Source: Paraspadella gotoi
Taxonomy: Eukaryota > Animalia > Chaetognatha
DNA: 64,000 nt
Assembly: GCA_051294375.1 (NCBI GenBank)
Contig: CM119269.1
Span: forward strand, 9,303,274-9,367,273
Reading direction: 5' to 3'
Shown in pieces: positions 2,605 to 59,021 of this stretch. The translations under genes and the position numbers were made by a program. Positions within the stretch are counted from its first letter, which is position 1, and the number at the start of each line of letters is the position of its first letter. The notes beneath the pieces are model-generated. The model saw nothing but the letters and a program-made list of their open reading frames with translations, had not been told where the DNA came from and did not search any database.

Positions 2605-3881
2605 GCCCCTTTTTTTTATAGGGGGCAGTTGGGGGGGACTGATTTACTTCTGGACTTTTTAAGGGAATTACTTAAACCCAACCCGGCTGGATTCTAATTT
2701 TATTTTGTTTGCGTTTTTTTTTTTTTTTCATTTTTATTTCGCTCATTTTGCAGATAGACTCACCACACTCGTATATCATCAGACTTAGAGAAGGTGACAA
2801 GCTTGTGCATAGTTTTGGCTGTGGAATTTAGATTTTTTATGGGTCGGTGCATTTTGAATGAAAGACAAGCGTTTGCTCTAATTATTATTATTATTACTCA
2901 GTATGTTTAATCACTGGGGGCTCGTTCACCTTTTCTTGGAATAACGGTTTCACGTTGCATTATGCATATATTATATATAGCATGGGGTTTTTTTTTCTTT
3001 CCTTCGAAAGAGCAGACGTTTTTTGTGGCGAAATGTTTTGTCTCTGTCATATTTACGAAACTTTACGAGTTATTTGGCGGGTTTAATGATAATTTCGCGA
3101 GTGGCGACTGAGCGCAACGAGACAGGAGACAACTCGCTACATCGACTGCCTTTCCTCATATCGAAATTGGCCCGCTGGATTTGAAGAACTCTTTTTCTAT
3201 GCGCATTAAATGTCGATCTGTGAATTTTTTTGATTAAATAACATTGTTTGAATTAACTAATTTGATTATTTTTATTATTCATTCTTCAGTTCAGTTAGAC
3301 ATGTGTAGAATTTGTGAAATTCGTTCTCAAATTGACTTGCGACCTTTTTTTCAATTTCGAGCCTCCACTAACGGGAGAGAGTAGGTTACCTAGTTTAAGC
3401 TATATATAGTCATTGACTCATTATAGTTAGTCATTTCATAAACACGTTGTCGAACGTTATTGAAAATCTGCCTGAGCGAAACGAAGATATACTTACATAC
3501 GGAGGAATAATATTGGCTTTCATCAAGGTTAATTGGGTAATTTATTGTTCCGTCATTACAAATTTTGCTAAAATCGTGGATAATTCTTTTGTTTTTATCC
3601 GTTGACGACAGCGACGATTTTTTTCAACAAAATAGCGTCGGTCGCTACCAAAGAGATACTAAGTGAATACGTCAAGAAAACTAACCCATAAAAGATTTGC
3701 TTTGACAAATTTAATTTGATACTGTAGAGGTAGAATACTAATTTGATATTAAGACAGTTAAGACATGAACCCACTGAGCCCTCTCGGCTGTATTTTCCAA
3801 AAACGCCCCTTTTCTGTTGAAATCTAACTCAAATTTCTTATGAAGTCTTATGGTGGACTAAAATCCACCAACCGTTCCTCA

Positions 3882-4070
3882 GCGGCCATTGGTGCCGGAG
3901 GCAAGTAATTCACTTCCCAACCCAAAAGGTCCGGGGTTCAAGCCCGGTGGTCGCCTAGCAGTTAAGAGGGACGGGGCGCTTAACCCGCCTGTAACACGGT
4001 GTTACAGCCTGGTCCGAAGCTCAGGGACTGCTTATATTGAACGGTTCTGTCACTAACACATAACAATAAT
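3882..4070 (+). mobile_element. tRNA-derived SINE-like element (tRNA-Gly-like head, structured body, AC/AAT-rich tail)
   Basis: Acceptor stem GCGGCCA(3882-3888)/TGGTCGC(3948-3954), T-arm CCGGG-GTTCAAG-CCCGG, A-box-like TGGTGCCGGAGG, B-box GTTCAAGCC, anticodon loop TTCCCAA. D and anticodon stems are degenerate. Tail ctaacacataacaataat. Confidence 0.7.
3957..4032 (+). ncRNA. Twister ribozyme, type-P5 permutation (predicted; P2 imperfect)
   Basis: Twister elements in P5-permuted order: P5 AGCAGTT(3957-63)/GACTGCT(4026-32); AA; P2' GAGG; GA; T1 CGG(3972-74); minimal P1 GGCGCT; TAA cleavage motif (3981-83); P2 CCC; GC; P3 CTGTAACA-CGG-TGTTACAG; P4 CCTGG/TCAGG closing loop TCCGAAGC. Confidence 0.75.
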
Positions 4071-4089
4071 TACTGTCTCTTCAGTCTCT

Positions 4090-4280
4090 TACCCAATCTC
4101 TCTACCTCACGCTTAACTTTAACCGATTCCTTAATCATAATCCCTAAACTTTTAATCTTATCCTAATCCTAAACCTTATCCCCTAACTGGAAACCTATAA
4201 CTTCACTCTTATCCCTAAACCTCTTCCCTAACCCGATTCCTAACTTACTCGGAAAGCCTAACCCCTCCCCTAATCCTATT
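4090..4280. repeat. Degenerate telomere-like (CCCTAA-type) hexamer tract
   Basis: Repeated ccctaa/cctaat/ccttaa/cttaac variants at roughly 6-nt period. Confidence 0.55.
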
Positions 4281-4443
4281 ATAATTTATTATTTAATTCA
4301 GTATTGTATTTATTTATTTATTTACTTCGGTTTCTTTTCTTTTTTCGTAGTTTATTTAATATTTTGCCTGTGTTAAGTTGGTCATAATTATTAACACATG
4401 ATTAGGTTTCGTTTATTTTGAATATAAGTACTAATGAATTGTA

Positions 4444-4593: not shown

Positions 4594-6811
4594 ATGGTGA
4601 ATTCGCCCTGCTGCGACGGCGGCGGCGGCGGCCCAAGCGGCGACGCTCAGTCCGTCAATCGACAAAAATCGGCGGATGAGAAAAAGATGCAATTGAAGCT
4701 CAAAAACCTGGTCAGTCGGCCGGACTTTCTTTGTATCTGTCTATCTATCCTTTCTTTCCTTTCTTTCCTTTCTTTCCTTTCTTTCTTTCCTTTCTTTCAT
4801 TTATTTCTTTCCTTTCTTTCTTTCCTTTTTTTCTTTAGTTTCTTATCTTTCTTTCTTTCCTTTTCTTTCATTTTTACTTTTTTTCTTTCATTTTTACTTC
4901 TTTTTTTTTACTTTCTTTCTTTTTTTGTACTTTGTCTCTTTCCTTTTTTTCGTCCTCCCCTCTCTCTCTCTCCATACTCCCACTCTCTCTCCCTCTCTCT
5001 CTCTATCTCTCTCTCTCCCCATAAGGTCGTCACAATCCCCGAGGAAGAGATCGAGAGAGTGGAAGGGCGACTACCTCCAACTCAAGTCAATCTCAATTTC
5101 ATCCGGACTTTGGAGAGAATTCCTGGCTCGATTCAGGCGCCCGAACATCCGGAGTTTAACCTCCGGGAGTTGGGCAATGTGCTGCCGCCCTGGTGATGAA
5201 ATTCGAGAATTGAAAAAAATGATAGAACAAATCGCTTAACAGAAACATTTTTTTTTTAAATATTGATGAATGAAAACGTTGACGTACTATTTCATATGCA
5301 AACAAATAAAACCTTTTAAAACCGAACTGCCTCTCGTTGGTAATATGTACTTCTACTTAAAACTGTACCAAATACTACCTAAAAACCAGAAATTAAATCC
5401 TAAAAACCAGTTCCCCAGATGCTCCATTACTAAAACGTCGAAAATAATTTCCCTAATTTTCTACACGTTCTCCAAAATCACCAATCAACTTCCAATCATC
5501 AATCACCAATAAAACACCAATCGTCAATCAATCAACCTCAAATCGCTAATACTCGACCTCTCCCACTTACCCGACCTCACCCACCAGGTATGTGGACGAG
5601 CTCCACAAGCGGCCCTTCCCGATCCCTGACCCGAAGGCTCCATGTCTCATCTCGTCGGAACCCACAGACTTTTCCCTCGAGGCGCAGCCAAAGACTTACT
5701 CGAGATTCCAGCCCCAAAGGGTCACGGTGCCCAAAGGTGGAAAGATCGTCTGCTCGTTTCTTAGTTTTTTATTTGTATATTTTTTATTTATTTATTTTTA
5801 TAGTCGCATCCATTCATTCCAATCCAACCCTCCAGGCTTCGCGGAGGTGTTGACGGTCTACTCCAAAGAGGTGGTCCGCTATCAAGTCCAAGGCGTCGAG
5901 ATGACGAATCTCTTCTCCGCCATCTTTTTCAGAGAATTGGTCAGGATGAGAGGGATCAGCTTTCGCGATCAGCTCAAGCACTCGATAGGTGGATGAAGAG
6001 ATTCATCGGTTGATTGATCGATCGATGAATTGAGGGAGGTGGATTCGGGGATCGATTGGCTGCTGATTTGGCAATCAATGGATTGATTGATCGATTGATT
6101 AGAAGATTAAATGGGTGACGACGTGGTCTTCGATCTAATTTATTGATTGTCTTCATGATTGATTGAATGTTCCAACGATTAATGTGACGCATTAAACGTT
6201 TTTTTAATTAATATGTTTGACGGATTGATTGCTCGTCTCTTTCAGAGTTGGAAGAGTTGCGCAAATACCGGGAATCGCTGAAGCAGCTCAAACTCTACCG
6301 CGGTCGCATGGGATCGATGGTGATGACGAACGCGCACATGCACCCGGAGTTCCATATCCTCAACACTTTTCAAAGGTGAGGTGCTGGGGATTTATTTGGA
6401 ATCGTAACGTTTATTATAACATCTATTCATTCCCACATCACCCCCCCCTTCTCAAATCAGCGCCTCCACGTCCTCCTCCTCCACCGCCGGCTCCTCTTCC
6501 TCTTCCGGCTCCCCCTCGCCCTCTCCCGGCGGAAACGGCGAGACCGCCGCCGACGACGCAGCAGATGCGGAAGAAGGCTACGGCGGCGGCGACGACGATG
6601 CCGACGACGAGGACGAGGAGGAGGAGGAAGGGGAGGAAGAGGCCGAGGAGGACGACGGATCGCCGGAAGGCGCTCGCCGGGACTCGAACCGGGAGGCCGT
6701 TAACAAAGAGTTTCGCGACGTGCTGCAGGTTTGGTCTGTCGGTCAGTCTGGATTGTCTGTCTATCCGTCGGGAAGACTGTTTCCTGATAGATTTTCCCGT
6801 GTGTTTATCCG

Positions 6812-6854
<43 letters not shown>

Positions 6855-6916
6855 GGCTGTCTCTTTTTGAAGGGTTTTCATTCATATCAAATTATGTATG
6901 TTTGTCTCGAGGTCTT

Positions 6917-6985
<69 letters not shown>

Positions 6986-7927
6986 CCTTTAGAATCCAAT
7001 TCTACAGTAAACTTACCTCCTTTGTCTCTCCTCCGTCTCTCCTTCCTCACTCCAGGCGAAAGACGATGCCATCGATTACGATCCCGCGGGAGAATACAAA
7101 TTTCCAAAAATGAAAGTCATCGTGACACCGGGGGAGTTCAAGAAAGGTAAGCAATTCGGGGAGCGAGGGATGATAAGGTCAAGTTGAGGAGGGTAGGAGA
7201 GTTGAGAGCGAGGGATGATAAGGTTGAGGAAAGATGAGGAAGACAGGGGCGGAGATGGTAATTAACTAAGTTAAAGAAGACGCGAGCAAAGGATTGTAAG
7301 GTCAGTTTAAGAAATGAAGGGTGGCAGGAGATGAGTGGGTTAAATTGAGATGTTTCTGGGTGAGAAAGAAAAGAGAGAGATAGAGATAAAAGAATAATTA
7401 AACAAATTAATATTTTAAAAGTTGAGATCTCATATTTGAGTCTCTGAGCGAACGATCATCCACTCCGCATATTCAATCCCTCGTCCCAACCCTTTTAGAT
7501 GAAGACCCCAACAGCATCATCTGCACCCGCGAGACTTGCGGGGCCGCCACATGCCGCGTCTGTCAGCGCGAGGACTGCTGCGGCGCTTGCGAGGTTGGCG
7601 GCGCTGCAAAGACGCCGGGCAAACGCTGCAAAAAGTGCGGCAACCCGATCCGAAAGCCGCCGACCCTCGAGGAGCAAGGGATCTGCACGCCGGACACTTG
7701 CGGTGCCAGGCTCGTCTGCGGCGACGCTTGCTGCAAGAAGGACAAGCCCAAGCCCTGCAATCCCGAGACCTGCGGCGCCATCGTCGATTGTCTCGGCAAC
7801 TTAATTCCGGCACCGGAAGAGGAAGATGTGGGGGACGAGTCGACTTGGATGGGGGAACACATTTGCAAGTGGGTGGATGAGTAGAATCAGGTTAAGAGAG
7901 TGGAGACGGTGGTTTAAGATTGGGCCT

Positions 7928-7988
<61 letters not shown>

Positions 7989-8284
7989 TCCTCGATTTAC
8001 CGCAGACGCGACGATGTGGAACCTCCTCCCGCCGCCACCTCCAGAGTCTCCCCGCGCCCGCGATGCTGCGACCTTTGCGGCAAACCCGAACCAACTATCT
8101 GCGACCCGAAGACTTGCGGCGAAACTGAAGCCTTCACCTGCGCCGATTGCCGCCTCGGTTGCTGCGGACAGGCGCCCCCAAAATGCAGCACCTGCGGCGC
8201 TATCGGCGGCGGGAATCGCAGTGCGGAGACTGCGGCGGCGGACCAGGAGTTCGGGGGAGGCGCCGATTGTAACAGGTGATATGG

Positions 8285-8354
<70 letters not shown>

Positions 8355-9142
8355 CAATATCTTCTTTTAGTCGCCTAAAGACTAAAGACGCAACTTTATA
8401 ATATAAGAAGCTTTTCTGAGATAAAAGCCAAAGGTGATGAAAATAAAAAAAACATCAAAATAAAGAGGATGAGGAGGGAGCCTCGAGACTGGCGGGTGAG
8501 TTAGGGAGGTAGGGAAAGAGGGCGTGGTAGATGAAAATAATAAAAGGATTAAAAGGAAAGAAAAGATGAGAAAGAGGAGGAGGAGGAGTAGAAACATAAA
8601 AATAAAGAGGAGGATGAGAAGGAAGAAGAGGAAAAAGAGTAGAAACAAAAAGACAAAGAAAAAGAGGAGAAAGAATAGGAAGAGGATTAATAACATATAT
8701 TTATTTATATTGGTTGTAACAATTTCATAAAGTTAAAAAGTTAAAAAGTATTAAAAACATTAAGATAAAGAGATAGAAGAAAAAGAGAAGGAGGAATAGG
8801 AAAAGAAGGAAGAGGAAAAGGAGTAGAAATATCAAGATTAATAAAAAAGAAGAGAAGATTGTTTTGAACTTGAGCTAAAGAAAGAAAGAGAGAGAAAATC
8901 AGATGATTACTTTGTAGCTTTGGATTCAGAGTCATTCTTTGTTTCTTCATCATTGATTCATTGTTTTCTTCATTGATAATCCATTCGCTCATAACACAAG
9001 AGATTATGAATGTTTTATCTATCAGGTCGACGTCCGACAGATGGCTTTATAATGACGAGTGAATTTTTTATTTTTAATTATCGAGCCTACCGGCGAAGCC
9101 GGTTCAGGATCGATATTGATTCTGGTCAGCTTCTTTGTGACT

Positions 9143-9179
<37 letters not shown>

Positions 9180-9913
9180 TTGATTATTTTTTTCATTTAA
9201 AAAACTTTTTATCGCCATTTATTCTGCGCTTTTTTCTCAATGCAAATCCCAAATTACTATTCTAGGAAAAAAGATTAGCAAACATTTTTTTTAAAGTTCA
9301 TTTATTCAATAAAAAAATATACAAAACATGGGTAAAACATTCTCAATATTTGGTATGCCCTCCCTCAGTACTCGACACTGCCTGGCATTCGTCGCGGGCA
9401 TGCTCTCGTAAAGCTGAACACAATGTTTTTGATTTGTTGCTATCGCCGTAAAAAATTTGCAATGGTGGACGAGGGATTCCAAGATCTCTTGCGATGAATT
9501 GTTGCGTCTTTCCCTCTTTTCTCAGAAGCTACAGGGGCTGTCTATTCGGCATAACTCAAAATTTAAAAAAATGAAAAAAATAACTAATCTCAATTTGAAC
9601 ATAGTAAACAAATAACTCATTACTCAAGAATGTGGAATAAACTATAAAGGCGATTTTTTCCGCCATTTTTTCAGCTTGAGGTAGGCAATCTTATTTGCTT
9701 ACTAACTATACCTATAGCGGTTGGATCTAACGAAAAAATGGAAGAAGCCAAACTGAAAAAAAGTGAAAGGAAATATTAGTGTAGAATCTGGAAAGGACAT
9801 CGCTGAATTTTTTAAATACTCGAGCACAGTTTTCGATCGATATCCTCAATTAAAAATGATTTCTAACTTTTTTCTACTGATAGTATATCCGAGATTTCGT
9901 GGATTTATTCTCT

Positions 9914-9957
<44 letters not shown>

Positions 9958-12900
9958 ATCTCTCTTTCACCATACACGCATTTTGTTTGTGTATTTATAG
10001 GATGATGAATCATTGCATCAATGAATAACTATCATCGCATCAATAATGACTATCATCGTATCAATGAATGATTATCACCACATCAATAAATGGACTTATC
10101 ACATCAATCATTGTGGTTATCATACATCGATCATTAGGTTATCATCGAATCAATTATTGGTTATCATCGCATCAATATTTGGTTATCATCGCATCAATAT
10201 TTGGTTATCATTGAAGGGAGGCTCGATCATATTCTTTTAAGATTTTTTTCATGTTAGTTGTTGGTTTTTTTTCTGTTGTTGGATTTTTTATTTGTGTTTT
10301 CATAAAAAAATGTCACTTTTAGTTATTTTTTTTTAAAAAAAGTTATGGGTTTTTCCAAGTTTTTCCAAGTCAATAAAATTTATTAAACTTTGATTTTTAT
10401 TTCGACGACTAATCCGAATACAGAGCGACTTGCGGCAAAGACGCTTTCTGTGTTGAGTGCTGCAACAAAGGGGCGCGGTTCTGCGACGCCACGACTTGCG
10501 GCACGGGATGCAAGACGTGCAAGAGATGCTTGAAGAAGCGATTGATGTCGGCCGATTGCACTAAGAAGACTTGCCCCGTCTGTTCCGGGAAACCCACTGA
10601 GGATGGGAAGGTTAATTATTTAATCTTTTAATTATTTCATCAATCAATAATTACAGAATTCATGAAATCATTTTTCATTCAACTTACTTTTAACTAGGTA
10701 TTAAATCGTTTATCCATCCATTCATTCATTCATTCATTCATTCATTCATTCATTCATTCATTCATTCATTCATGTCTTGTTATTCGCTTACTCTCTCCCT
10801 CCCTCTCTCACTCGTTCCTTCCCCTCTCTCTCCACTCACTCTCCCACTCACTNNNNNNNNNNNNNNNNNNNNNNNNNNNNNNNNNNNNNNNNNNNNNNNN
10901 NNNNNNNNNNNNNNNNNNNNNNNNNNNNNNNNNNNNNNNNNNNNNNNNNNNNNNNNNNNNNNNNNNNNNNNNNNNNNNNNNNNNNNNNNNNNNNNNNNNN
11001 NNNNNNNNNNNNNNNNNNNNNNNNNNNNNNNNNNNNNNNNNNNNNNNNNNNNNNNNNNNNNNNNNNNNNNNNNNNNNNTCTCTCATTTCAGGTCCCAACC
11101 TGCTGCCCCAAATGCGAGCGCAAAGAATCCGTCGAAGATCTTGACACCAAAGTATCCGAGTCTGCGATTCCACCAGGAATCAAGAGACTCTTGACTGATC
11201 GACATGAAGGCGGAGATTAAGAGAGGATATCGATCATTTGGTTATCATCTGCATGAAGCGCTTCTTAACGCGCGACCTAGATAAATCCGAGTTATCGCAA
11301 TAAAACAAACTAATTTCATCTCTATTCTTCTAGAGTGCCCTATATTTGTGCCCAATTAATTATTGAATTAAATCCGTGTTCACTGCTCTGCAAATAAGTA
11401 TCTTTGGAAAACCAAACAGTTCTAACATTAAAAACATCCTTAACATAACCTTAATTTCTTAGAACCATGTAATAAAGCAGAAACAGTACCACATTTTTGA
11501 GGAAATAAAAATTTACAAATTTTTCCAATCTCAGTACAAATATTCATGGTAAGCAATGTAGAAGGAAGAGGGCAAGGTAGGCAAGAAGATGGAATGGTGG
11601 TTCAAGAAATGAGTGCAAGTTAAAACTACAAAAAATAGACAATGCTATAGTATTAAATAAACTTTAAACCTTAAATTATAAATAAACATATTTAAACCTA
11701 AGTACAATTCAATATAAATCACATGTAACACTAACCTCAATTTTGGGTTCCAGAATAGAGAATAAAAACATTGGCATTTGTAAAGTAGTACAAAACATTA
11801 TTTAAAGTATTTTCATTTTCATTTTTACCACACGTGTTTGAATTGAGAGTAAAAGACCTTTGAAAGATTAAACTGAAACACGCTCGTTCGTAGCTCTCCA
11901 CAGCTGATCGCGGGAGAGTAAATTCAGATAATTCAACCGGAAACAAATGAATTCATCGATCTAAACGAAACTAAACCCAATTATACACGAAAAAAAAGGG
12001 CATCGCTTTTCTCCATCGCATCAATTATTGGGTTATCATCGCATCAAATATTTTGGTTTGATCATCGCATCAATATTTGTTATCATTGAAGGGAGGCTCG
12101 ATCATATTCTTTTAAAGGGATTTTTTTCCAATGTTATGTTGTTGGTTTTTTTTCTGTTGTTGGATTTTTTACTTTGTGTCTTTTCATAAAAAATGTCACT
12201 TTTAGGTTATTTTTTTTAAAAAAGTTATGTTTGATTTTTCCAAGTTTTTCCAAGTCAAATAAAATTATTAAACTTTGATTTTTATTTCGACGAACTAATC
12301 CGAATACAGAGCGACTTGCGGCAAAGACGCTTTTCTGTGTTGAGTGCGTGCAACAAAGGGCGCGGTTCTGCGACGCCACGACTTGCGGCACGGTAATGCA
12401 GACGTGCAAGAGATCTTGAAAAGAAGCGTTGATGTCGGCCGATTGCACTAAAGATTGCCCGTCCTGTTCGGGAAAGCCACTGAGGATGGGAAGGTTAATT
12501 ATTTAATCTTTCTAATTCTTCATCAATCAATAATTACAGAATTCAATGAAACTCATTTTTCATTTCAAGTTACTCTTAAACTACGGTAATTTATGTATAT
12601 TCCGTAATTATTCCATTCTCATTATTCATTCATTCATTCATCATTCATTCTCAGCTTCATTCTTATTAGTCTTGTTATAGCTTACTCTCTCCCTGCCTCT
12701 CTCACTCGTTGTTCCTTCCCCATCAGCTCTCCCCTCACTATCCTCACTCTCCCCCTCACTCTCTCTCTGCTCTCCTCCTCTCTCTCTCTCGTCTCTCTCT
12801 CCTCCTCCTCTTCCCCTTTCTCTCTCTCTCTCTTCTCCCTCTCTCATTCAGGTCTCAACCTGCTAGCCCCACAAAATGCGAGCGCGAAAGGAATCCCGTC

Positions 12901-15430
12901 GAAGATTCTTTGACACCAAAAGAATCCGAGTCTGCGATTCCACCAAGGAATCAAAGATCGTTGACTGATCGACATGAAGGCGGAGATTCCGATACGAGTC
13001 TCGGCGATGTTGAGGGGATGGATGGATGGATGATGAGCGATGGATGAGGGAATGGATGGATGGATGAAATAGAGGATGGATGGAGGAAATGGATGGATGG
13101 ATGGAATGCATAGCACTGGAATGGCATGGATAAGATGAATGATGAAGGGATGGATGGAATGGATTGGATGAAATGGATGAAATGATGAAGGGATTGGATG
13201 GATCGCCAAATGATAGATGGGCATGATAGATTAAATGGATGAAAATGATGAAGGGATGGATGGATGGATGGATAGATAAANNNNNNNNNNNNNNNNNNNN
13301 NNNNNTGGATGAAATGATGAAGGGATGGATGGATGGATGGATAGAGGAATGGATCAATCTCCTTCTAGGGCGACGGAAAAACCGGGGAGGGCGGCGACGA
13401 TGGCAAAGGCGGCGTCAGCGGCGCTAAACCCGGCGACATCGGCGGCGTCATTGAGACCTATTGCGTCAAAGGCACCTGCGCCAATCAATGTGGCGTCTGC
13501 GGCGGCTGTAGCAAGAACGCTTGCGGGCCCAACAGCAACTGCAATCACGGCGGGAAATCCGGCAAAACGGACGTCAACAAAAATCGGAACAACGCCGACA
13601 ACACCGTGAGAGTGGCGGACAACGTTAACTGCTCTAATTGCTGCGGCGGCGGCGGCGAAGGCGGCGTATCCGGTGGCGTACTCGATCGCGGCGGCGCCCC
13701 GCTGGCCCGGCACCTCCTCGCCGACATGAACGTGGCCACACATTGCGACCCCAGCTCCAAACCCGGCCCTACCTGCACGATCAACGATTGTGGTCGGACC
13801 AAGTATTGCCACAAATGTCACGGTGGTCGCGACGACAAACCCGAGGCGTGCCCCATCTGCAATCCGCCCGAATTGGTCTGCGGTCCGGGCGTTTGCGGCA
13901 TCGTCGTCGAATGCGGCGATTGCTGCGAGACGCCGCCCGATTTCAAGGCCTCCTTCCCGAAGATCGCCTACTCTGGCATCGGGCCTTTCCAACTGAAAGT
14001 CTGCGGTCCGATCGCGGGGAAGATCGCCGCCAAGAAGTTGGGACTTAAATGCGCTTATCCGAGTCCGTCAATTGAGGAGAGGTGAAGGGGGCAATTGGTT
14101 TTTCTTTTCTCATTTCTTTCATGATTTATTTGTTTTGTTTTTTTGTTTTTTGTTGCTTTTTTATTGAGTAATGACGTTTTCTTTGAGGATCGATTATCGA
14201 TTGATTCACATTTGTATCGTATTGACAGTTTATGTCGTGTATGACTTTGAAAATTTGACTAAACTTTCCACATTTTCTACCTTCCCATCCATTCCCCCTG
14301 TTACCCATTCCTCTCTTCCCCCTGTTCCACCTTTCCCCTCTTCCTCTTTCCCATTATTTCCCCCTTTCCCCCTTTCTCCCCCTCCCCCCCTCAAACCCAA
14401 AGAATGGACGACCGCTGGTTCAAACCGGACGACGAGGCCGAAAGGCGTCGACTCGAAGCCATTCGCAAGAAGCAAATTCTCGACGCGGAGAACGTCTTCA
14501 CTCGGGAGCGTCTCTTCGGGCGGAGATTCAGCGGCGCAATCTGCGGAGTCGATCAAGTGTTGTGGGATCCGGCCAACGCCCCGCCGCCGCTTGACGACGA
14601 GGGTTCGTATTTTTGATTGATTGAACGATTGAACGATGGACCGTTTAATTAAGTGCTCCCAACAATCTCTTGGTCATCGGTTCTATTAATTGCACGATTT
14701 GCTGCGGCAGTACGCCCTTTTTAAGTCTCACCAAAAAAAAAGCAACGGCAACGGTGTGTAAGTGTGAATTGCTTGAGGCATCGTATTCCACAGATTAAAA
14801 TATGATTTGATTTAGCAATTGAGAGAGAAAGCAAAGTTTATTTTTGTTTACAAACAACGAGTTTTATTTTTCGAACGGACATGTTTCCTCTCTTTTTCGA
14901 GTCTTCTTCAGCGCAATTTTCGATTGAGCTATTCAAATATTCAGGGTAGAAAAATGCCCCCCCCCCATCTTCACTTACTTCAATTCCATCACTCAAACAG
15001 GAAACCCCCCCGCCGCCGGACAAGGGAAGCCTTCTTATCTCTCGGGAGGGAGAAAGGACCGACCGAACGAGTGCGACATAGAACCGACCGTCAAGCATGC
15101 GAGGACCGTCTTGCACGGGAGAGGCGCCGGAAGACGAAGGCTCGGCCCCGCCGGAACAAGAAGTGTCGGAAGGCGCGCCGTCCGAAGGCGCGGCGCCGGA
15201 AGTGAGGCAGCGCCACCTTCCGAAGCATGGGATCCGTAACCGCCGAGGAAGCGCCGCCACCGCCGCCGCCGCCTTCCCCGCCGGAACCGGAGGAAAGCGC
15301 CGCCGAATCTCCGGCGGCCGAGGACGCCGACTTGGCCGCTGAGGCTCCGGCGGAGGAAGCGGCGCCGCCAGAACCAGAAGCGCCGGCCGAGGAAGCGCCG
15401 GCAGAAGAGGCGCCTCCAGCGGAAGAGTGA
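4594..15430 (+). CDS. Uncharacterised RIIa-type D/D-domain protein with acidic tract, CxxxTCG Cys-rich repeats and Pro/Glu/Ala-rich tail
   Basis: Exons 4594-4710, 5026-5192, 5588-5736, 5836-5988, 6246-6375, 6461-6728, 7056-7146, 7499-7868, 8006-8275, 10424-10610, 11092-~11217 (fuller but error-rich copy at 12852-~13008), 13369-14081, 14403-14602, 15001-15430. Exons 1-11 and 12-13 splice in frame; the last exon has frameshifts. VTVPKGFAEVLTVYSKEVVRYQ..LFSAIFFREL resembles the PKA RIIa dimerisation/docking motif. Confidence 0.72.
9062..9254. mobile_element. Helentron-associated (HINE/DINE-1-like) non-autonomous repeat end
   Basis: T-run, then terminal stem-loop TATCGAgCCT-ACCGGC-GAA-GCCGGT-tc-AGGaTCGATA (9079-9115), followed by a (TCG)n microsatellite. 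This is the typical HINE terminal layout. Confidence 0.5.
9257..9883 (-). mobile_element. Internally deleted Tc1/mariner DNA transposon
   Basis: Degenerate TIRs (TA)ctattctaggaaaaaagattagcaaaca / tgatttctaacttttttctactgatag(TA) with flanking TA. The minus-strand remnant 9552-9343 reads, across frameshifts, an HTH-like ..GKTQQFIARDLGIPR.TIANFLRR joined to a Tc1-type C-terminus LYESMP..QAVSSTEGGHTKY*. The DDE core is missing. Confidence 0.75.
12010..13010 (+). repeat. Indel-rich tandem duplicate of ~10150-11217 (two exons of the Cys-rich gene); likely assembly artefact
   Basis: Collinear copy of exons 10424-10610 and 11092-11217 plus introns, differing mostly by single-base indels. Confidence 0.8.
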
Positions 15431-15711
15431 AGAAGATATATTTATTTGAATATTTTCTACTAACTCTGTCACTCTAAATTATGTATGTAAATAACGTTTA
15501 GTAAAGGTTAATCATTTAATTAAATCTCGTTTATTTTAACGTACTAATGATGTTGTGAAGATGGGAAAATCAACGTGACCGACGTCGTCAATTTAATTAA
15601 AAAAAAATAAATTAAATTTATTAAAAAATAAATAAAAAAAAAAACAACCTAGCAAAATAATATTTTTTTTATCAAAGATTCGATTCCTTTGTTCTTTTTT
15701 TTTCTTCCTAT

Positions 15712-18066
15712 TCATTCCCGCCCAACAACGTCCTCGTAAGATGGCGGCGGCGTTGGTGGTTTCCCCGGCGCCGCCGCTTCGTCGCGTCTTCCTGCGGCGC
15801 CCACCGCTTCGGAGTAGGAAGGCGGCGCAGGTTCGAACCCGAAATTCGCGCTGTTAGCGGAGCGCGCCGCCGTAAACGAAGAGGCGTGATATCTCGGCGG
15901 CGTCCCTCTCGTCGTCGGTCGTAAAACCGGCGTTCTTCTTGTCGACGCCGACGACGCCGCAGGAAAGTCGGCATCGCGACGAAGAGCGTGAGATTGACGC
16001 CGCTCGGACCGAAAGTTGACTTCGCCGACGCCGGGACGAAGAATCGGGGTCGTTGAGAACGTCGCAGCGGCTGACCCGGCGGAAGCGACGCCCCGACGCA
16101 GCGCAGATGTGACGGCGGACTCTAGGGCGGCGGAGGCGGCGGCAGCGGCGTCGAGCGGACGAAGGAATTGAGCGTCGCGAAGGGAGACGGAGCTAGGGAC
16201 CTCGGGAGGCGTGGTCCAAGGCGAAGTCTGATGGACGTGAGGGGGTTGAGGACTGAAATGTCTTCAATCTTCTTTTCATTCTTTATTAATTAATAAAAAT
16301 ATCAAATAATCCCAACAATAAAACAGTAGTTATGCCTTTTCGCCCCGACCCGCCCCGTCTCGGTTTTACCATACCCAGTCCTAGTTTTTTTTTTCCCTCC
16401 TTTTTTTTGTTTTTTTTTGTTTTTTACATCTTTCCTTACTTTCGCTTCGTCTTCCCTGACCTGAGTTCCGACCCGAGGTACGTTCACCGCTACTTCTCTC
16501 TCCCACTGCTCCGTCAAACGAGGGTAAGTTCCTCCTCTGTCGCCGGAGTGGTAGGAAGAGCGCGGCAGCAGCTCGTGAGCCGCGAGACGCTGCAGTATCG
16601 TCCGGTGCTGCTCCGCTATCTGTCGCGACGACAACAGATTGGACGACGACAACGGTGACGACGATATCGAAAAGTCATTGTTCGATTCGCTGAGAAGCTC
16701 TGGGGTTTGAGGGGAAAGGGGGGAGGGTGAAAAGGGGTAGGGGGAAAATCGGGACGAGGAAGAGGAAGGGGTGATCATTACGAATGAATTTTCTTTTCTA
16801 TTCGCTTTGTTCTTCCCTCTCGTTTTTCTCGCTAATTCGTTTCTCTTCTTTCTCTTTCTCATCTTTCCTTTCCTTTTAATCCTTTTATTATTTTCATCTA
16901 CCACGCCCTCTTTCCCTACCTCCCTAACTCACCCGCCAGTCTCGAGGCTCCCTCCTCCTCCTCTTCTTCCTCCTGCTCCTCCCTCGCTCTCCTCAGTTCG
17001 GCCAAACTCCTCGGCTTCACGACGCATTCGTGGATGAGGAGAGAGAAGAGGTAAGAGAGAAGAGAGAGAGACCAGAAGAGGAGGACGAGCCACCACCCGG
17101 AGTGGTTTCTGGGAGAGGGTGGTTGAATAAGCGGATGGTAAAGGGGGTGATATGGGAGATGGGCGTAATTTCCTTTGGTGAAAAAATGGACCTTGAGGAG
17201 ACGGTTACACTCTAAACATAGATTTTTTTACGTAGATTCCTTACAAAAATAAGAAGTATAATATTCTCATTTGCATATTGCAGCATTGAGATTTGTCTTG
17301 GTTAGTAAACGTAAATGCAATTTTTTTTTTAATTTATGGAATAAGACAATCGAAGATTACTTTGTATGGTTATTTAGCCTGTTATGTTAATTTATCAGCC
17401 ATTTTATGAAAAGTTGTTAAAGTTTTACTTCTCTATACCTCGTTTTATTTTCACCACCTTCATTCCGGAGAAAAAACGGGAGAAGGACTCCGGTCACGGC
17501 CAACCCGATGCCCATCTGTCGTCCAACAGAATTAAATAAATTCATTTTTTAATTACTTGCTCTCACTTTAACTAATTTCATACCATCTTAGAAAATGAAT
17601 ATTTAAGACTAACTTTTGCCCCCTTTAATATCAAAATCACTGGTAGATAATAATATATTTGAAAAATTCGGTTAATTGTGATTCGATGAGTTATTGTTCG
17701 GTAATATGCGATTAAAAAAACAGTTTCTGAGGTTCAAATGAAAAGAAGGAAGTGAAGAAAATATGGCCTTTTCAATTTTTATGACTATTTTCTAAAAACA
17801 ATCATTTATCACATTATCATAATAATATTCAATTAATCTTCCCATATAAGTAAACTCTTGATTGATTCATTTACACCTCTTAGGTTTTGCCCATAGTTAA
17901 TGATTATCAAAATTTTAAATAATTTCTCACCCAACTGTCAACCCAATCTCCCTCACGCACCAATCCCCCTCACCCAATTGCAGAGACGCGAGATTCGTTT
18001 CCAGCTGCAGCAACAGCAATCAGACAGTTCCAGTTTATCCTGTTCCATGGTGCTGGAGAAATCCAT
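15712..18066 (-). CDS. Predicted two-pass membrane protein with Cys cluster and three PPxY motifs
   Basis: Kozak cccaccATGg at 18066. Exons 18066-17974 (MDFSSTMEQDKLELSDCCCCSWKRISRLCNW), 17515-17458 (MGIGLAVTGVLLPFFLRNE), 17108-16933 (WWLVLLF..; needs one indel), 16699-16461, ~16227-15712 ending ..TPPRYH..PAPPSYSEAV..PPTPPPSYEDVVGRE*. Confidence 0.7.
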
Positions 18067-19677
18067 GGTGGGCCTCGCGGCCTTTTACATTCCTCTCCCT
18101 ACAAACCGATTCTAATCTAAGTCCCATGGGTAAACTCGGTCTATAAGGGCGCAATCTTTATACTGGAGTTAAATCTATCGGACTGGCGTAAATACCGCCG
18201 CTATCGGCGATCGCAGATTTTTTTGTTTTCCATCTTATTGGCGATTAGGTCTCGTCGATCAATCGATCCATCAATCAATCAAAATACATTTATTTTAAAA
18301 TCTTAATGTAAAATTAGAAAGTCTAATTTAGTAAAACAAGTAATCTTGTAATTTTTCATATCGTGTTAAAATTAACATTGGGAAATCGCGTTAATTGTTA
18401 ATTTTTTTTTAGCGAATTTGATCGGTAAATAATTATCCGTGGGGGAAAAAAACTGAATTTACACATCACATACAAATATTGTACAAATGATTATAGTCAC
18501 AAAAAAATAGAAAAATTTTATTTTAGTCAGGAATTTAATCAGCATCGAATACAATATTTCTGACTAAATTTTTAAAAACAATTTTTAAAGATAAAAAATA
18601 TAAAAAGCACACTAATCAAATGCTAAAACGTTCCTTCAATGTTTTAATTTAAACCAGAAAAAAAAATGATAACCGCTTTTCTTTTTTTAACATTAAAATC
18701 CAACGAGTTTCTATGGTTAACTTTAAAAGCGCGAGATTTTGATCTGTTTACATAAGAATCGAATGAAATCTTTTACAAGAATCGAATCGCGGAATGAGAT
18801 GAATGAGATGTAAATGAGAAGAGATGAATGATTCGATTAATGATTCGCTGAATGACATGAATTATTTGATTAAGGAATCAATGAATGATATGAATAAAAA
18901 AATAAAAAAAAAAAAAAAAAAACTAAAGTAAAACTGCTGGTGGTCAATTCGGTTGTGATTTTCTTTAAACATTTTACTCAAGCGAAAAGAAGAAAAAAAG
19001 AAATTTAAAAAAATATTTAAATTTTATTTTACTGGATCGAAAAAAAAATATGGGATAAAAAAAGGCGTAAAAATTGAGATGAAAGAAAAAAAAAGAAAAC
19101 TAAAAGCGATGAAGCGAAAACAAAACAAGATAAATCAATTTTTAAATTTACATTTTAATATTATCAAGTATATAACCTATTTACGTACGTACATCTCGAT
19201 TTTTATTCTTTAGTTTTATAAAAAAAATTTCTCTTTAATAACGATCATTAAATTTTCTGCTAAATTTCAGTTCTCAGACTGAAATAACTGAAGGAGTAAC
19301 TGACCAGTAAAAAAGTCGACAAACCGACAAGTCTACAAACCGACAAGTTGACAAACCGACAAGTCGACAAACCGACAAGTGGACGAGATTCAGGTTCGAT
19401 GGCCGACCATTCATCCCGACTCCCGTCCTTGCAATGCATTCCTCAAAAAAACTTTTCAAAACAAAATTCGTTAAAAAATCTGGGTTAGAAAGAGTTGGCT
19501 TTTATGCAACAATACGTCTGTGAGTTTGTGTGTGGGACTGTAGGTCTGAGTTTGAGTGTGGGACTGTGGGTCTGTGTTTGTGTGTGGGACTGTGAGTCTG
19601 AGTGTGAATACAATGGGTGTTTGTGTGTTCTGGATGAGTGGTCGAGTATCCTCCTTTTGTTTGAACATAAAAAAGTC

Positions 19678-19730
<53 letters not shown>

Positions 19731-20049
19731 AGGAGAGAGAAAGAGAGAGAGAGAGAGAGACCATCAACATTTCTTTTCCGACAAAAGTCATTCATTTTTC
19801 ATGATCGTCGACATTCATGATTTAAAAGCCTCACGGAGCTAAAAATCATTGGAATTTTTTATAAGATGTAAGTTACAAAATTTATATTTAAAATTTAAGT
19901 TTTTATCTTATAAATATATTTTAAATATTTGGTTATTTTTTAATTTATTTAAAAGTTATAAAGGTTATATGCCAAATTAGATAAATTAAAAAAATATTTT
20001 ATAAATTAATAATTTTGATGTCATTAAAAAAAATTGCCTGTTCACCTTC

Positions 20050-20252
20050 GTTTTTCCGGCTCTTTCCCACATCGTGCTCCGCCCAATCGGCCTCGACTGA
20101 AGCTCGCAGCCTCTCGTCGAAGGCCGAGACTCGACGAAAGGTTTCGAAGAGTGTGTGGAGAAGAGAGAGCATCTCAAGGAGGATCGACCCGGCGTCGTCG
20201 TCGTTATCGTCGTCGTCATCGTCGTTGTCGTCGTCGGCACTTCCCAAAGAGT
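20050..20252. other. Exon-like GC-rich island, strand and gene uncertain
   Basis: The minus strand has AG/GT-flanked ..SLGSADDDNDDDDDDNDDDAGSILLEMLSLLHTLFETFRRV... The plus strand has an ORF 20015-20284 and possible downstream + exons (21267-21408, 21504-). I cannot choose between them. Confidence 0.3.
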
Positions 20253-20498
20253 CTGGAATTCCCGCCAAAAAAATACAGATTTAGTGGAGAAAAAAAAGAG
20301 GACCAGTGGTTTTACTTTCGCCAACTTAAACATTTGGATCGAATTTCGTAAACATAAACAAAAACAAGAAAGAAAAAAACTAACAAAACAACAAAAACTG
20401 AAAAAGTCCATCCTTCAAGGTAAATTTTTTTTACGCGAGAAAACTGATTCGTAGTTTTTGTTGGATATTTCGAGCTGTTTCGCCAAAAAACAAAAATA

Positions 20499-20553
<55 letters not shown>

Positions 20554-21048
20554 TCTTCTCTTCTCTCTCTCTTAAAAATTTAACCCAAATTCAAGCTGTG
20601 AAAACGTTTAATATGAAATCATAATATCACTTTCCATTTTAAAGCCTGAAAAACCCCCAAAAAATTGCTGGTTGATGATTTTTTTCTAAAATGTTTGACA
20701 TCCAAAGATTTTTTTTCGATCATGATCACAGAATGTTTTAACATTAGTGAACCCATCACTATAAAGAAATCAAAAGTTAAAGAAGAAAATATTGATTTAT
20801 TGATAAGGAGGCCAAGTTCTTAAACTATGTATGTTATTCTATTGTAAGAGAGATGGAGGCATAAACCCTAACTTGTCCAATGTCAGGGGGCAAGATAAGA
20901 ATGAAAATAAAGAAAAAAGATCAAAGAAAGAGATAAAAGCGGGAAAAAAGATTTCAACCATTGTCACTGAATTTGGAAACAACTTGAGATTAATGACATT
21001 AATTAATCAAGATTCAAATTCTCCGACATTAACTTGGATGAATTGTTG

Positions 21049-21124
<76 letters not shown>

Positions 21125-21359
21125 CCTCACTATTCTTCTTCTTCTTCTTCTTCTTCTTCTTTTTCTTCTTTTTCTTCTTCTTCTTCTTCTTCTTCTTCCC
21201 AATCTCATTCCAAATTTTCCCCACAATAATTTTTTAAAATTTCACTCCATTTCCTTCTCTTCTCAGAAAATTCTAGTTTCATCGCTGGTGAATCCACAAA
21301 AGGAGGAAAAGGAGGAAAGAAAAGAAGAGAAGAAAGAAGAAAAAAAGGAATTTTCATAA

Positions 21360-22222
21360 AAAATGGAGGAACTTATAATATCGGAAGCTATCGAGCCCGT
21401 CATCGAGGTAAACGGCTCCCCCCCTCTCTCTCTCTATCTCTTTTTCTCTTCTCTCTCCTCTTCTCTTCTCTCTCTCTCCCTCTCTTTTAAATGGATTTCT
21501 TAGATCCCAGCCGGCGACGACGTTAATGCAAATACCAAATGGGCTCATTAAAACTGAAGGCGACGAAAAGATTAGATAGAGAGCGCAACAATTACTTGCG
21601 ACATCTCGTGATGATTAAATTATCGTTAATGTCGATCACGTCTTAACAAAAACGACGTCAACCAAAAACCAAGCTACTACAAATGAGAGTATTTAAAATA
21701 TTACTCATTTTCAAATTTTTAACGTTAGTATATACTTCGTAAATTCTATGTCCGTAGCATTCAACAGCCTAGTATATAGATTTTTTTCAATTCTGGATAT
21801 TCTAAATTCACAACTTTTCTCGGTTCACAATAGATCCAACTGCTCCCTCCTTTCACTGATGCACGTATCCGGCCAACTTATAACTGGGCAGACTCCTCAT
21901 CTGATTCGGATAGATCCAGTAGTATCGATTCTCTTTGATCTTCTCCAGCACCTCCTTGTCGAACATCAGCACCGTCTGATACAGGTGCGCGTCGAGATAT
22001 CCTCGTCGCATTTCTTCGTCCTCCTCGAAGATGGAGGGAGAGGGCACTCGAGTGGACGCGCGCTTGCGGGAAGAAGGGCGGCTCGGGGAGGGCTCGTCCA
22101 CACTTGCGCCTTCTATTAAAAAAAAGTTGGGTGGGGAAAGGATAGAAAGGAAACTAAACGCCTTTTCCTTTTTTTCACACTTATCTTAAATCTATATTCA
22201 CTGCACTTAATTAACTTGATTT

Positions 22223-22267
<45 letters not shown>

Positions 22268-22439
22268 CCGTTGCTCTCTTTCCCTCCTTCTTTGATTTTG
22301 TTAATCTCTACTCTCCTCCTCGTCTGGCTCTCCTCGTCTCTCCTCTCTCCTCTTCACCTCTCTCTTCTCTTCTCTCTCTCTCTCTCTCTTTCCTCTCTCC
22401 TTTTCGCTCTCTCTTTCGTCTCTTCCTCTTTTGATTCTT

Positions 22440-22493
<54 letters not shown>

Positions 22494-22548
22494 CTCTCTC
22501 TTCTTCTCTTTCGCTCTCGCTTTCTCTCTTTTTTCCTCTCCTTTCTCT

Positions 22549-22592
<44 letters not shown>

Positions 22593-22715
22593 TTGTCTTG
22601 ATCATCAAGGCTCTCCCTGTCTCTCTCCGTGGAGAATTCAGAGTCAGTATCGCTGTCGCCCTCGATCACTGTCGCCCGCTTCCTCCGGCGCCGATTTCGA
22701 CTTGCGGCGCGACGA
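21360..22715 (-). repeat. Tandem duplicate of ~22741-24030 (last two exons of the MGINESK gene); likely assembly artefact
   Basis: ORFs 21853-22101 and 23223-23471 encode identical 82-aa peptides, and the copies are separated by a short N gap at ~22716-22740. Confidence 0.85.
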
Positions 22716-22800
22716 NNNNNNNNNNNNNNNNNNNNNNNNNAATGGAGGAACTTTTAATATCGGAAGCTATTCGAGCCCGTCATCGAGGTAAACGCTCCCC

Positions 22801-22862
<62 letters not shown>

Positions 22863-23222
22863 TAATGGATTTCTTAGATCCCAGCCGGCGACGACGTTAA
22901 TGCAAATACCAAATGGGCTCATTAAAACTGAAGGCGACGAAAAGATTAGATAGAGAGCGCAACAATTACTTGCGACATCTCGTGATGATTAAATTATCGT
23001 TAATGTCGATCACGTCTTAACAAAACGACGTCAACCAAAACCAAGCTACTACAAATGAGAGTATTTAAAATATTACTCATTTTCAAATTTTTAACGTTAG
23101 TATATACTTCGTAAATTCTATGTCCGTAGCATTCAACAGCCTAGTATATAGATTTTTTTCAATTCTGGATATTCTAAATTCACAACTTTTCTCGTTCACA
23201 ATAGATCCAACTGCTCCCTCTT

Positions 23223-25392
<2,170 letters not shown>

Positions 25393-25400
25393 CTCGTCTT

Positions 25401-25439
<39 letters not shown>

Positions 25440-26756
25440 CTTTTTTCCTTTTTCTTTATTTCACGCAATATTGTTCGCTCATGCAGGCGGGTTTTCCGCA
25501 ATCAGCTGTGAATCGAAGGAGGATTGCAAAGTTTGACGCAGGGGCTAATAATATATCGAGGTTTGCCGCAAGCAACTGGCATGACCTTCAGGTTTGCAGC
25601 AAGGAACATTCATTTTCACTAGGCCTGCAGCAAACGTCACGGCGTGGGTTAGTTTTATAGAGCGAAGAATTTCCTTTACAACAGTAAAACAAAGAATATG
25701 TTGCATCTAATGTCGCCGAGATGCCGCAATATAATCACCGCAGTTTTATCGATGCGTGACGTTAATTTTTCTTTTTCAAATCATCAAAAGTCGAAGCGAA
25801 ACTTTTTCTCTTTAAATCGGAAAAAAAAGACAGAAAAGTAAAGAGAAAAAAATATAAATTTCGCGGTTCTTTTCAAGTTTAATCTTCGTCTCTCGACAAA
25901 AATTATCAAAATAAACAAAAATTGAATTAAACAAAAACAAAACAACACGGGGTTTATTGATTGCGTAGAAAATCATTACCCGCCTCATGTAGTAGTTCCA
26001 GAAAAAAAAATATTCAAAAGTTTTTTTTTCTTAGTTCCTTTTAACCATAATGATTATTCCAAGTATTTTTTTCCTAGTTTTTCCTTTATTTTTATTCTTT
26101 TTTTTTTCTTTATTTTTTTAAATTTTCTATTCAGTCATTGGATTTTGTCATTTCCTATCGTTTTCCTTCTTAGTCTCAATATCGCTCTCCCTTAAAAAAA
26201 ACAACAAAAAAAAAAAAAAACCAAAACCAAACCAAAACCAAAGTTGTGATAACTCTGACGTTGATGAGATTAGAGTGGTGATATAAATAGAAAGAACGAA
26301 AAACAGAAAAATGACTTTGCAAAAACAAAGATAAAAAATAAAAAAACAAAATATCAATAAAATGCTGCATAAATTCTTTACTAATGTTTTGACTGAGATT
26401 AAAATTATGTATTGTCCATCTTACATATGTTAAAAAAAGTTATGTCATTCCAACTTATTCTAGCACTAAGACTTTTGAAAAATAACTAAAGTTATATTCT
26501 TTTAATTTAAAATACTAATTTTAAAATCAAAAAAGCCTCAAAAAGATGCAGAAGTTTGTTCGGTTCGATCGCTGCTTCTAAATTGTGTCGTTTTCCAGTT
26601 GACAGGGTTCTGTTGACAAATGTCTTTTCGGTCGTAACTCGAAAAAACCCATTTGAGGATTTTCATCAGTCACATCGAGCGTGTTTCTTCCTGAACCGAG
26701 AAAACAAAACCAAAAACATAAAAAATACAAAAGATTAAAAAAAAAAGAAAAAGAAA

Positions 26757-59021
<32,265 letters not shown>

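Follow-up and report, generated by a model that had tools for sequence, protein, structure and literature searches.

A predicted type-P5 twister ribozyme behind a tRNA-derived segment in an abundant 235-bp repeat of the chaetognath Paraspadella gotoi

LTR retrozymes are already known from plants, where they carry hammerhead ribozymes, and mini-LTR elements that bear tRNA sequences are already known without ribozymes. The latter are represented in animals by Helenus (TRIMp3; Kojima 2024), in which a tRNA-like sequence is located in LTRs of up to 323 bp, the insertions are flanked by 4-bp duplications and solo LTRs occur (PMC10886601). We have analysed a 235-bp repeat within 64,000 nucleotides of the Paraspadella gotoi genome (contig CM119269.1 of assembly GCA_051294375.1), the whole of this stretch being referred to below as the window. 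The Helenus features, as described in PMC10886601, that find a counterpart in this repeat are A and B boxes inside a terminal repeat (120-323 bp in Helenus), the 4-bp duplication of the animal members, a CA end, solo LTRs and thousands of copies. While Helenus termini are TG...CA, the unit described here has the CA end but a TA start, for which Helenus-11B_PTrit and Helenus-4_MusRap provide precedents; an end in TTCA, as found here, is listed for Helenus-8_PSt and Helenus-3_PiIm (PMC10886601 supplement). The differences are threefold. The accessible part of PMC10886601 describes no ribozyme, the word twister being absent and ribozyme occurring once, among the references, whereas a twister fold is predicted here, and in the Helenus consensus file of its supplement no L4 motif occurred in the setting of a twister, though a motif may be split there by a line break. 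Many of the Helenus LTRs inspected by eye have a T run directly behind the tRNA part, the place that the twister takes in our unit. Finally, Helenus families keep many internal parts, LTR-11_DR being listed with 5575 LTRs and 2618 internal regions (PMC10886601), whereas none was seen here among the contig rows listed.

Plant LTR retrozymes (Cervera 2016) contain a ribozyme in each LTR, are flanked by 4-bp duplications, occur as solo LTRs and have been proposed to be mobilised by Gypsy elements via a circle (PMC4918200). The repeat resembles them, as portrayed in that article, in the predicted presence of a ribozyme in an LTR, in being non-coding, in its 4-bp duplication and in a ribozyme that is blocked in the predicted fold. 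In contrast, the plant ribozymes are type III hammerheads in LTRs of 300-400 bp, with no tRNA-type promoter described in the accessible part of PMC4918200, and the unit presented here is from an animal, is 235 bp long and combines a predicted twister with a tRNA-type promoter. Twisters at the 5' ends of RTE elements (Perere-3 T-variants) likewise place a twister with P3, and with a weak or absent P1, in an animal retroelement (PMC8501958). These, however, are of type P1, their cut marks the 5' end of the element and a reverse transcriptase is encoded, whereas the fold in our unit is of type P5 with a central predicted cut; five motifs of the family, searched in context, were absent from the supplement of PMC8501958. 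SM-alpha and the animal non-LTR retrozymes are also small ribozyme-bearing repeats, SM-alpha uniting a tRNA with a ribozyme, but they are described as hammerhead-bearing tandem arrays with a link to Penelope and not as single units with 4-bp duplications (PMC6765202; PMC7229834; bioRxiv 10.64898/2026.07.22.740005). A published tRNA-SINE or tRNA-LTR with a twister was not found in the literature searched, which held a minority of subscription papers and neither Repbase nor Dfam, in agreement with the initial annotation, which knew of no described tRNA-SINE with an internal twister.

Extent, ends and tRNA-like part of the repeat unit

Contigs from three runs of the same organism (X1, possibly the source sample, X5 and X6, from two studies) were mapped on positions 3500-4400 of the window at 80% likeness, giving 7673 contigs for X1 (about half of the run), 2982 for X5 and 1986 for X6. 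In all three runs loose contig ends pile up sharply at a left end, 3848/3849, and at a right end, 4083, where 157 contigs of X1, 145 of X5 and 92 of X6 stop. As the flanks beyond these ends are also diverse among contigs (agreement 0.40-0.47), the unit extends from 3849 to 4083, and not over 3882-4070 as initially annotated. The repeat is very abundant, at about 10^4 times the depth of its flanks: in X1 the summed depth was 0.4-1.9 million within the unit and 64-89 outside it, and the ratio of unit to flank depth, which is not to be equated with copy number, was about 7,000-15,000 in X1 and 5,000-23,000 in X5. The features of the unit, all on the forward strand, are as follows.

3845-3848: left target-site duplication, GTCT, the same four bases as at 4084-4087
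3849-4083: whole repeat unit, 235 bp, starting TA-TGG and ending TTCA, delimited by loose contig ends in all three runs and read as a solo LTR
3849-3881: 33-bp leader upstream of the tRNA-like part (U3-like), identified from family coverage, with a 7-bp hairpin, 3851-57/3864-70
3870-3877: 5' arm of stem S1, which encloses both the tRNA-like part and the twister; fully complementary, in inverted orientation, to 4039-4046
3882-3955: tRNA-derived segment, predicted Pol III promoter, with acceptor stem 3882-88/3948-54, A-box-like sequence 3890-3901 and B box 3935-3945
3957-4032: predicted fold of a twister ribozyme permuted as type P5, with a P3, a minimal P1 and an imperfect P2, from sequence indexing, a descriptor and our own model, with a weak Rfam match
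3970-3974: putative general-base G3970, the A of the A.A pair and the T1 strand CGG (first pair swapped), pairing with 4014-4016
3981-3983: UAA loop with predicted cleavage U3981/A3982, placed according to the consensus of homologous twisters (PMC8501958 Table 1)
4013-4020: L4 loop with the T1 and T2 pseudoknot strands, aligned to the Rfam model and to our own
4033-4083: trailer (U5-like) ending CA, without poly-A, simple-repeat tail or run of four T
4039-4046: 3' arm of stem S1; exact inverted repeat with 3870-3877
4084-4087: right target-site duplication, GTCT, matching 3845-3848

The target duplication is 4 bp long with a palindromic preference, seen directly in this one copy and for the family through its flank consensus. 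TA occupies positions 2-3 of the adjoining four bases in all 11 of the end rows listed, and CTAG separates one head-to-tail pair of unit copies among the contig joints listed. A 4-bp duplication with such a preference is of the kind left by an integrase or a DDE transposase.

In the tRNA-like part the acceptor stem has 7 bp and the T stem 5 bp; the GGTTC B box is intact and the A box partial, and the D and anticodon arms are degenerate. A tRNA descriptor gave one match in the window and two in 200 shuffles, and the segment was called neither by ARAGORN nor by the Rfam tRNA model. It had been annotated as a tRNA-Gly head; the acceptor stem, T arm and B box uphold the tRNA origin, but the segment begins 33 bp inside the unit instead of at its 5' end, and the glycine label rests on the loop CCC only, since the anticodon stem pairs at two of five positions in this copy. 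The tRNA-like part is best read as a promoter relic.

The 8-bp length of S1 was reached in 57 of 5000 shuffles, and the family majority base at 3878 adds one pair to it. These subterminal arms are the only inverted repeat near the unit ends, where no terminal inverted repeat was found. The unit contains no run of four T, the first one downstream being at 4150, and its depth shows no steady rise toward the 3' end. Among the contig rows listed there was no internal region, no primer-binding site after an LTR, no polypurine tract and no second LTR; among the 15 joints listed of 52 there was no high-depth joint from 4083 to 3849, and the two end-to-start joints listed had depths of 181 and 105, equivalent to about one or two loci. 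A Helentron/HINE, suggested by the terminal hairpin and subterminal arms, was rejected because of the 4-bp duplication; these elements are not known to leave one.

Some further details were observed at the ends. The 5' hairpin (3851-3870) begins TGG, as a primer-binding site does, and the CCA at the close of its 3' arm recalls the end of a tRNA. The left flank (3839-3845) holds TATGAAG, the reverse complement of the element end joined to its start, the right flank (4084-4090) repeats the GTCTCTT of 4075-4081, other copies having diverse flanks, and TCTTATG recurs in the left flank at 10-base spacing, all of which are possibly chance. A degenerate CCTAA-rich tract of single-copy depth lies directly behind the element at 4090-4275.

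Elsewhere in the window, blastn found no second copy of the repeat, and no partner element was found near it, as ten ORFs of the window gave no Pfam match. Adjacent near-duplicates of 0.7-5.7 kb with 87-92% identity (50548-61466, 25403-35409, 21362-24030 and 10143-12749) probably represent haplotypes, or noisy reads that the assembly arranged in tandem, one copy having an open frame of 1323 aa (59022-62993) that is broken in the other. Transglutaminase exons lie at 43745-44888, with best matches of 90-95% to transcriptome proteins and others of up to 87% across many phyla, which identifies the host as an animal, and cysteine-rich open frames with repeated CG motifs and no Pfam match lie at 7426-8279 and 13369-14085.

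The twister-type fold, its scores and its variation in the family

Sequence indexing confirmed all three stems that the initial annotation had proposed, P5 (3957-63/4026-32, 7 bp, closed), P4 (4008-12/4021-25, 5 bp) and P3 (3989-96/4000-07, 8 bp). Both pseudoknots can form, T1 (3972-74/4014-16) with three of three Watson-Crick pairs plus A3971.A4017 and T2 (3987-88/4019-20) with two of two, and all 18 catalytic and pseudoknot positions of the twister are present in this copy. The swapped pair of T1, which had been pointed out as covarying, also occurs in the natural sequences L056 (57.5 bits), L072 (52.9 bits) and L098 (44.6 bits), which are Rfam-grade type-P5 twisters, and is thus a natural variant, although these three of 15 came from a pattern that demanded the swap and do not represent a frequency. 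Element order, catalytic G and A, both pseudoknots and the swapped pair are accordingly shared with the type-P5 twisters of Rfam (RF02684), from which the fold in the unit differs in its closed 7-bp P5, its P1, its P2 and in scoring far short of the gathering threshold. A linker of 6 nt stands in for the P1 stem, and in place of a 4-bp P2, CCC faces GAGG with two pairs followed by either a C.A mismatch or a bulged A and a third pair. These two weak points had been recognised, but the suggestion that this copy lost a T could not be upheld. No substitution or insertion row was found at the P2 sites (3966-69 and 3984-86) at the 5% threshold in any of the three runs, indicating that CCC is the state of the family, and a sequencing error was ruled out on the same grounds. 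A type-P1 parse using the downstream GAACGG (4039-44) was rejected by eye, having no catalytic G or P2 partner.

A twister descriptor, composed once the finding was known and asking for two contiguous P2 pairs, matched the window once, at 3970; 120 dinucleotide-shuffled versions of 62,002 bases gave no match. The match at 3970 is lost when three contiguous pairs are demanded. A search with the Rfam twister models, as the initial annotation had recommended, gave no match in the window at gathering level; when 211 bases were searched, a single partial match to Twister-P5 was obtained, with 10.4 bits and E 9.5, well under the gathering score of 37.6. We also built a model from natural type-P5 twisters in viral and metagenome contigs, where at least 246 pattern loci yielded 16 that passed the descriptor and 15 that reached the Rfam threshold; L061, which passed the descriptor but had no Rfam match, was left out of the model and of the energy control. 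This model ranked 3957-4034 first of 11 matches in the 64 kb, over its full length, with 13.8 bits (E 0.076), the next best scoring 8.7. The low score is explained by P1 and P2, as the reference twisters all have P1 regions of 18-26 nt and 14 of the 15 have a full 4-bp P2. In published twister assays, defects of P1 and P2 were tolerated and those of the pseudoknots or catalytic positions were not (PMC11662667, as far as accessible), and PMC5113685 agrees.

In energies that leave out both pseudoknots, the minimum-energy fold is more stable than the nested twister fold by 10.6 kcal/mol, or by 7.9 kcal/mol when the pair that needs the copy-specific G4012 is penalised. For the 15 natural twisters the gap was 0.0-6.6 kcal/mol in every case on a shorter span, on which the window gives 9.8. 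With the copy-specific pair penalised the best fold contains a hairpin, 3969-75/3984-89, which is likewise the best fold when only the transcript up to 3990 or up to 4007 is considered. Judged from its sequence, the twister fold is credible, and we lean slightly towards measurable cleavage by members of the family. Scans elsewhere gave five pattern matches in metagenomes and one in a genome scan, none of which passed the descriptor or the model (best 7.5 bits), and these six are taken as chance; the pattern of the tRNA/P5 junction had no match in viral contigs. Two viral-contig loci, L137:58-358 and L148:297-647, each hold two Twister-P5 matches on the same strand, about 240-300 bases apart.

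The mapped contigs gave 21 substitution rows inside the unit, six private to this copy and 15 that vary in the family. The family majority base at 4012 turns a G.U pair of P4 into A-U. Eight variant rows concern acceptor, P4, P5 or T1 pairs, and pairing is kept in seven of them, which is weak evidence, all being transitions and three of them at G.U pairs, and a two-sided compensatory change within the family was not seen among the contig variant rows. One of the 15 polymorphic sites falls in the 18 core positions, against 1.15 expected, so that there is no signal of selection on the twister core; this site, 4016, varies in 1.4-7% of the depth and breaks T1. At one variant locus, present in all three runs, the P1 linker and P3 are changed and GACGG, TAA, CCC and GC are kept. 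Divergent copies with 23-38 differences, one of full length, as well as copies with 6-17 gap bases, suggest older subfamilies, the divergent one being about 84% identical.

Origin of the unit and its possible propagation

The contig mapping and the sequence together support the central proposal of the initial annotation, namely that a multi-copy mobile element contains a twister-type fold, permuted as type P5, immediately after a predicted Pol III promoter of tRNA origin. The 235-bp repeat is likely the solo LTR of a small non-coding LTR retrotransposon of the Helenus/TRIM type. The fuller reading that we prefer, of a Helenus-like mini-retrotransposon mobilised by Gypsy, in which the twister and not a terminator defines the RNA ends, is held tentatively, at a little less than an even chance. 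Against a solo LTR stand the TA instead of TG start, the missing terminal inverted repeat and the fact that no internal part was seen. The cycle would run as follows. Pol III would start near 3882 in the 5' LTR of a master copy with two LTRs and, as the unit has no T4 terminator, read through to the 3' LTR, and cleavage at 3981/3982 by the twister of each LTR would free an RNA of unit length that bears a 5'-OH and a cyclic phosphate at its termini. The cut RNA, held together by P5 and S1, would be open to ligation into a circle. Its reverse transcription and its integration, with a 4-bp duplication, would be carried out by the enzymes of a Gypsy-type element and give mostly single-LTR products. 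Pol III use, cleavage, circle, two-LTR master and Gypsy partner are all putative for this unit. A template of two copies would be needed because a single copy transcribed from its own tRNA part cannot copy its own leader, and the pairing of leader and trailer in S1 fits an RNA that contains both. The position of the twister where many Helenus LTRs have a T run suggests in turn that cleavage, not termination, sets the RNA end.

The initial annotation had proposed a tRNA-headed SINE, which would be copied by target-primed reverse transcription with the twister cutting the head from the body. This is very improbable, despite the tRNA-derived promoter boxes, a size and abundance typical of SINEs, the twisters reported at the 5' ends of RTE non-LTR retrotransposons (PMC8501958 Table 1; PMC7761336) and a P3 that resembles by eye that of the Schistosoma RTE twister (PMC8501958). 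The conserved 33-bp leader before the tRNA, the sharp 3' CA without a tail, the 4-bp duplication and a depth that does not rise steadily toward the 3' end do not fit such an architecture. A tRNA-started transcript of a single copy cannot regenerate the leader. Separation of head and body is also an unlikely purpose of cleavage; the two cleavage products would remain base-paired in P5 (7 bp) and S1 (8 bp), and for a SINE, removal of the promoter by its own cleavage would prevent propagation from single copies, a problem described for the Schistosoma hammerhead SINE (PMC6765202). Leader regeneration would be explained by a tandem Pol III retrozyme like SM-alpha of Schistosoma, or a Penelope-dependent repeat, in which head-to-tail arrays are transcribed from the tRNA promoter of one copy, cut to monomers and dispersed as dead single copies. 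Head-to-tail joints do exist, and tRNA with hammerhead in tandem repeats is a described precedent (PMC6765202; PMC4918200), but the joints listed have a depth of only one or two loci, and one 4-base spacer fits insertion into the duplication of a neighbour. Moreover, the element ends are far from the predicted cut, Rfam gave no hammerhead match and the one duplication of a metazoan retrozyme stated in the accessible part of PMC4918200 is 15 bp, and we consider this origin to have little likelihood.

A non-autonomous, MITE-like DNA transposon moved by a DDE transposase with a 4-bp stagger would account for copies that are single, sharply bounded units inserted at 4-bp targets of palindromic preference. 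Such an element would have captured the tRNA-twister module from an older retroelement, with the ribozyme as a passenger and the S1 arms as subterminal binding sites, and internal deletions that keep both ends (for example the joint from 3876 to 4064, among the joints listed), the failure to see an internal region among the contig rows listed, the lack of a selection signal on the core and the strong competing fold are consistent with it. We nevertheless regard it as unlikely, given that a terminal inverted repeat is absent, that in its 3' CA end and its LTR-like size the unit corresponds to the LTRs of Helenus, that all 18 core positions and both pseudoknots are intact and that the variant locus, though only one, changes P1 linker and P3 and spares the motifs named above. 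A further alternative, which overlaps the others, is that an LTR-type or other mobile unit carries a decayed twister that no longer cleaves, its fixed CCC forming a local hairpin with the T1 strand. The recurrence of that hairpin in the best fold and in the two transcript prefixes, and the weak model scores, argue for such a relic. It seems quite improbable, however, as folding programs omit both pseudoknots, plant retrozyme RNAs likewise hold their ribozyme in a blocked predicted fold (PMC4918200), and flaws of P1 and P2 were those tolerated in the assays cited above.

Within the preferred solo-LTR reading, a more specific proposal, which we put forward as rather doubtful, is an animal retrozyme of the LTR type, with a tRNA-derived Pol III promoter and a permuted twister in a 235-bp LTR, self-cleavage in place of a terminator and a circle copied by Gypsy. 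In its boldest form no internal region may be needed, the LTR alone being the replicating element; this LTR-only reading derives from the junction of unit end and start, which reads CA-TA-TGG, where CA resembles an integrase end, TA a spacer of two bases and TGG the beginning of a primer-binding site. It is because no internal region or second LTR appeared that both the LTR-only and the DNA-transposon readings stay alive.

If true, the retrozyme strategy would be extended to a second ribozyme class and to a second kingdom, and a genomic role would be given to a type-P5 twister. It would also suggest, in a form open to testing, how genome-length RNA can arise from a Pol III promoter in an LTR without a stop in the first LTR. 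A family at about 10^4-fold depth would, in addition, constitute a large natural collection of variant twisters whose P1 and P2 are minimal.
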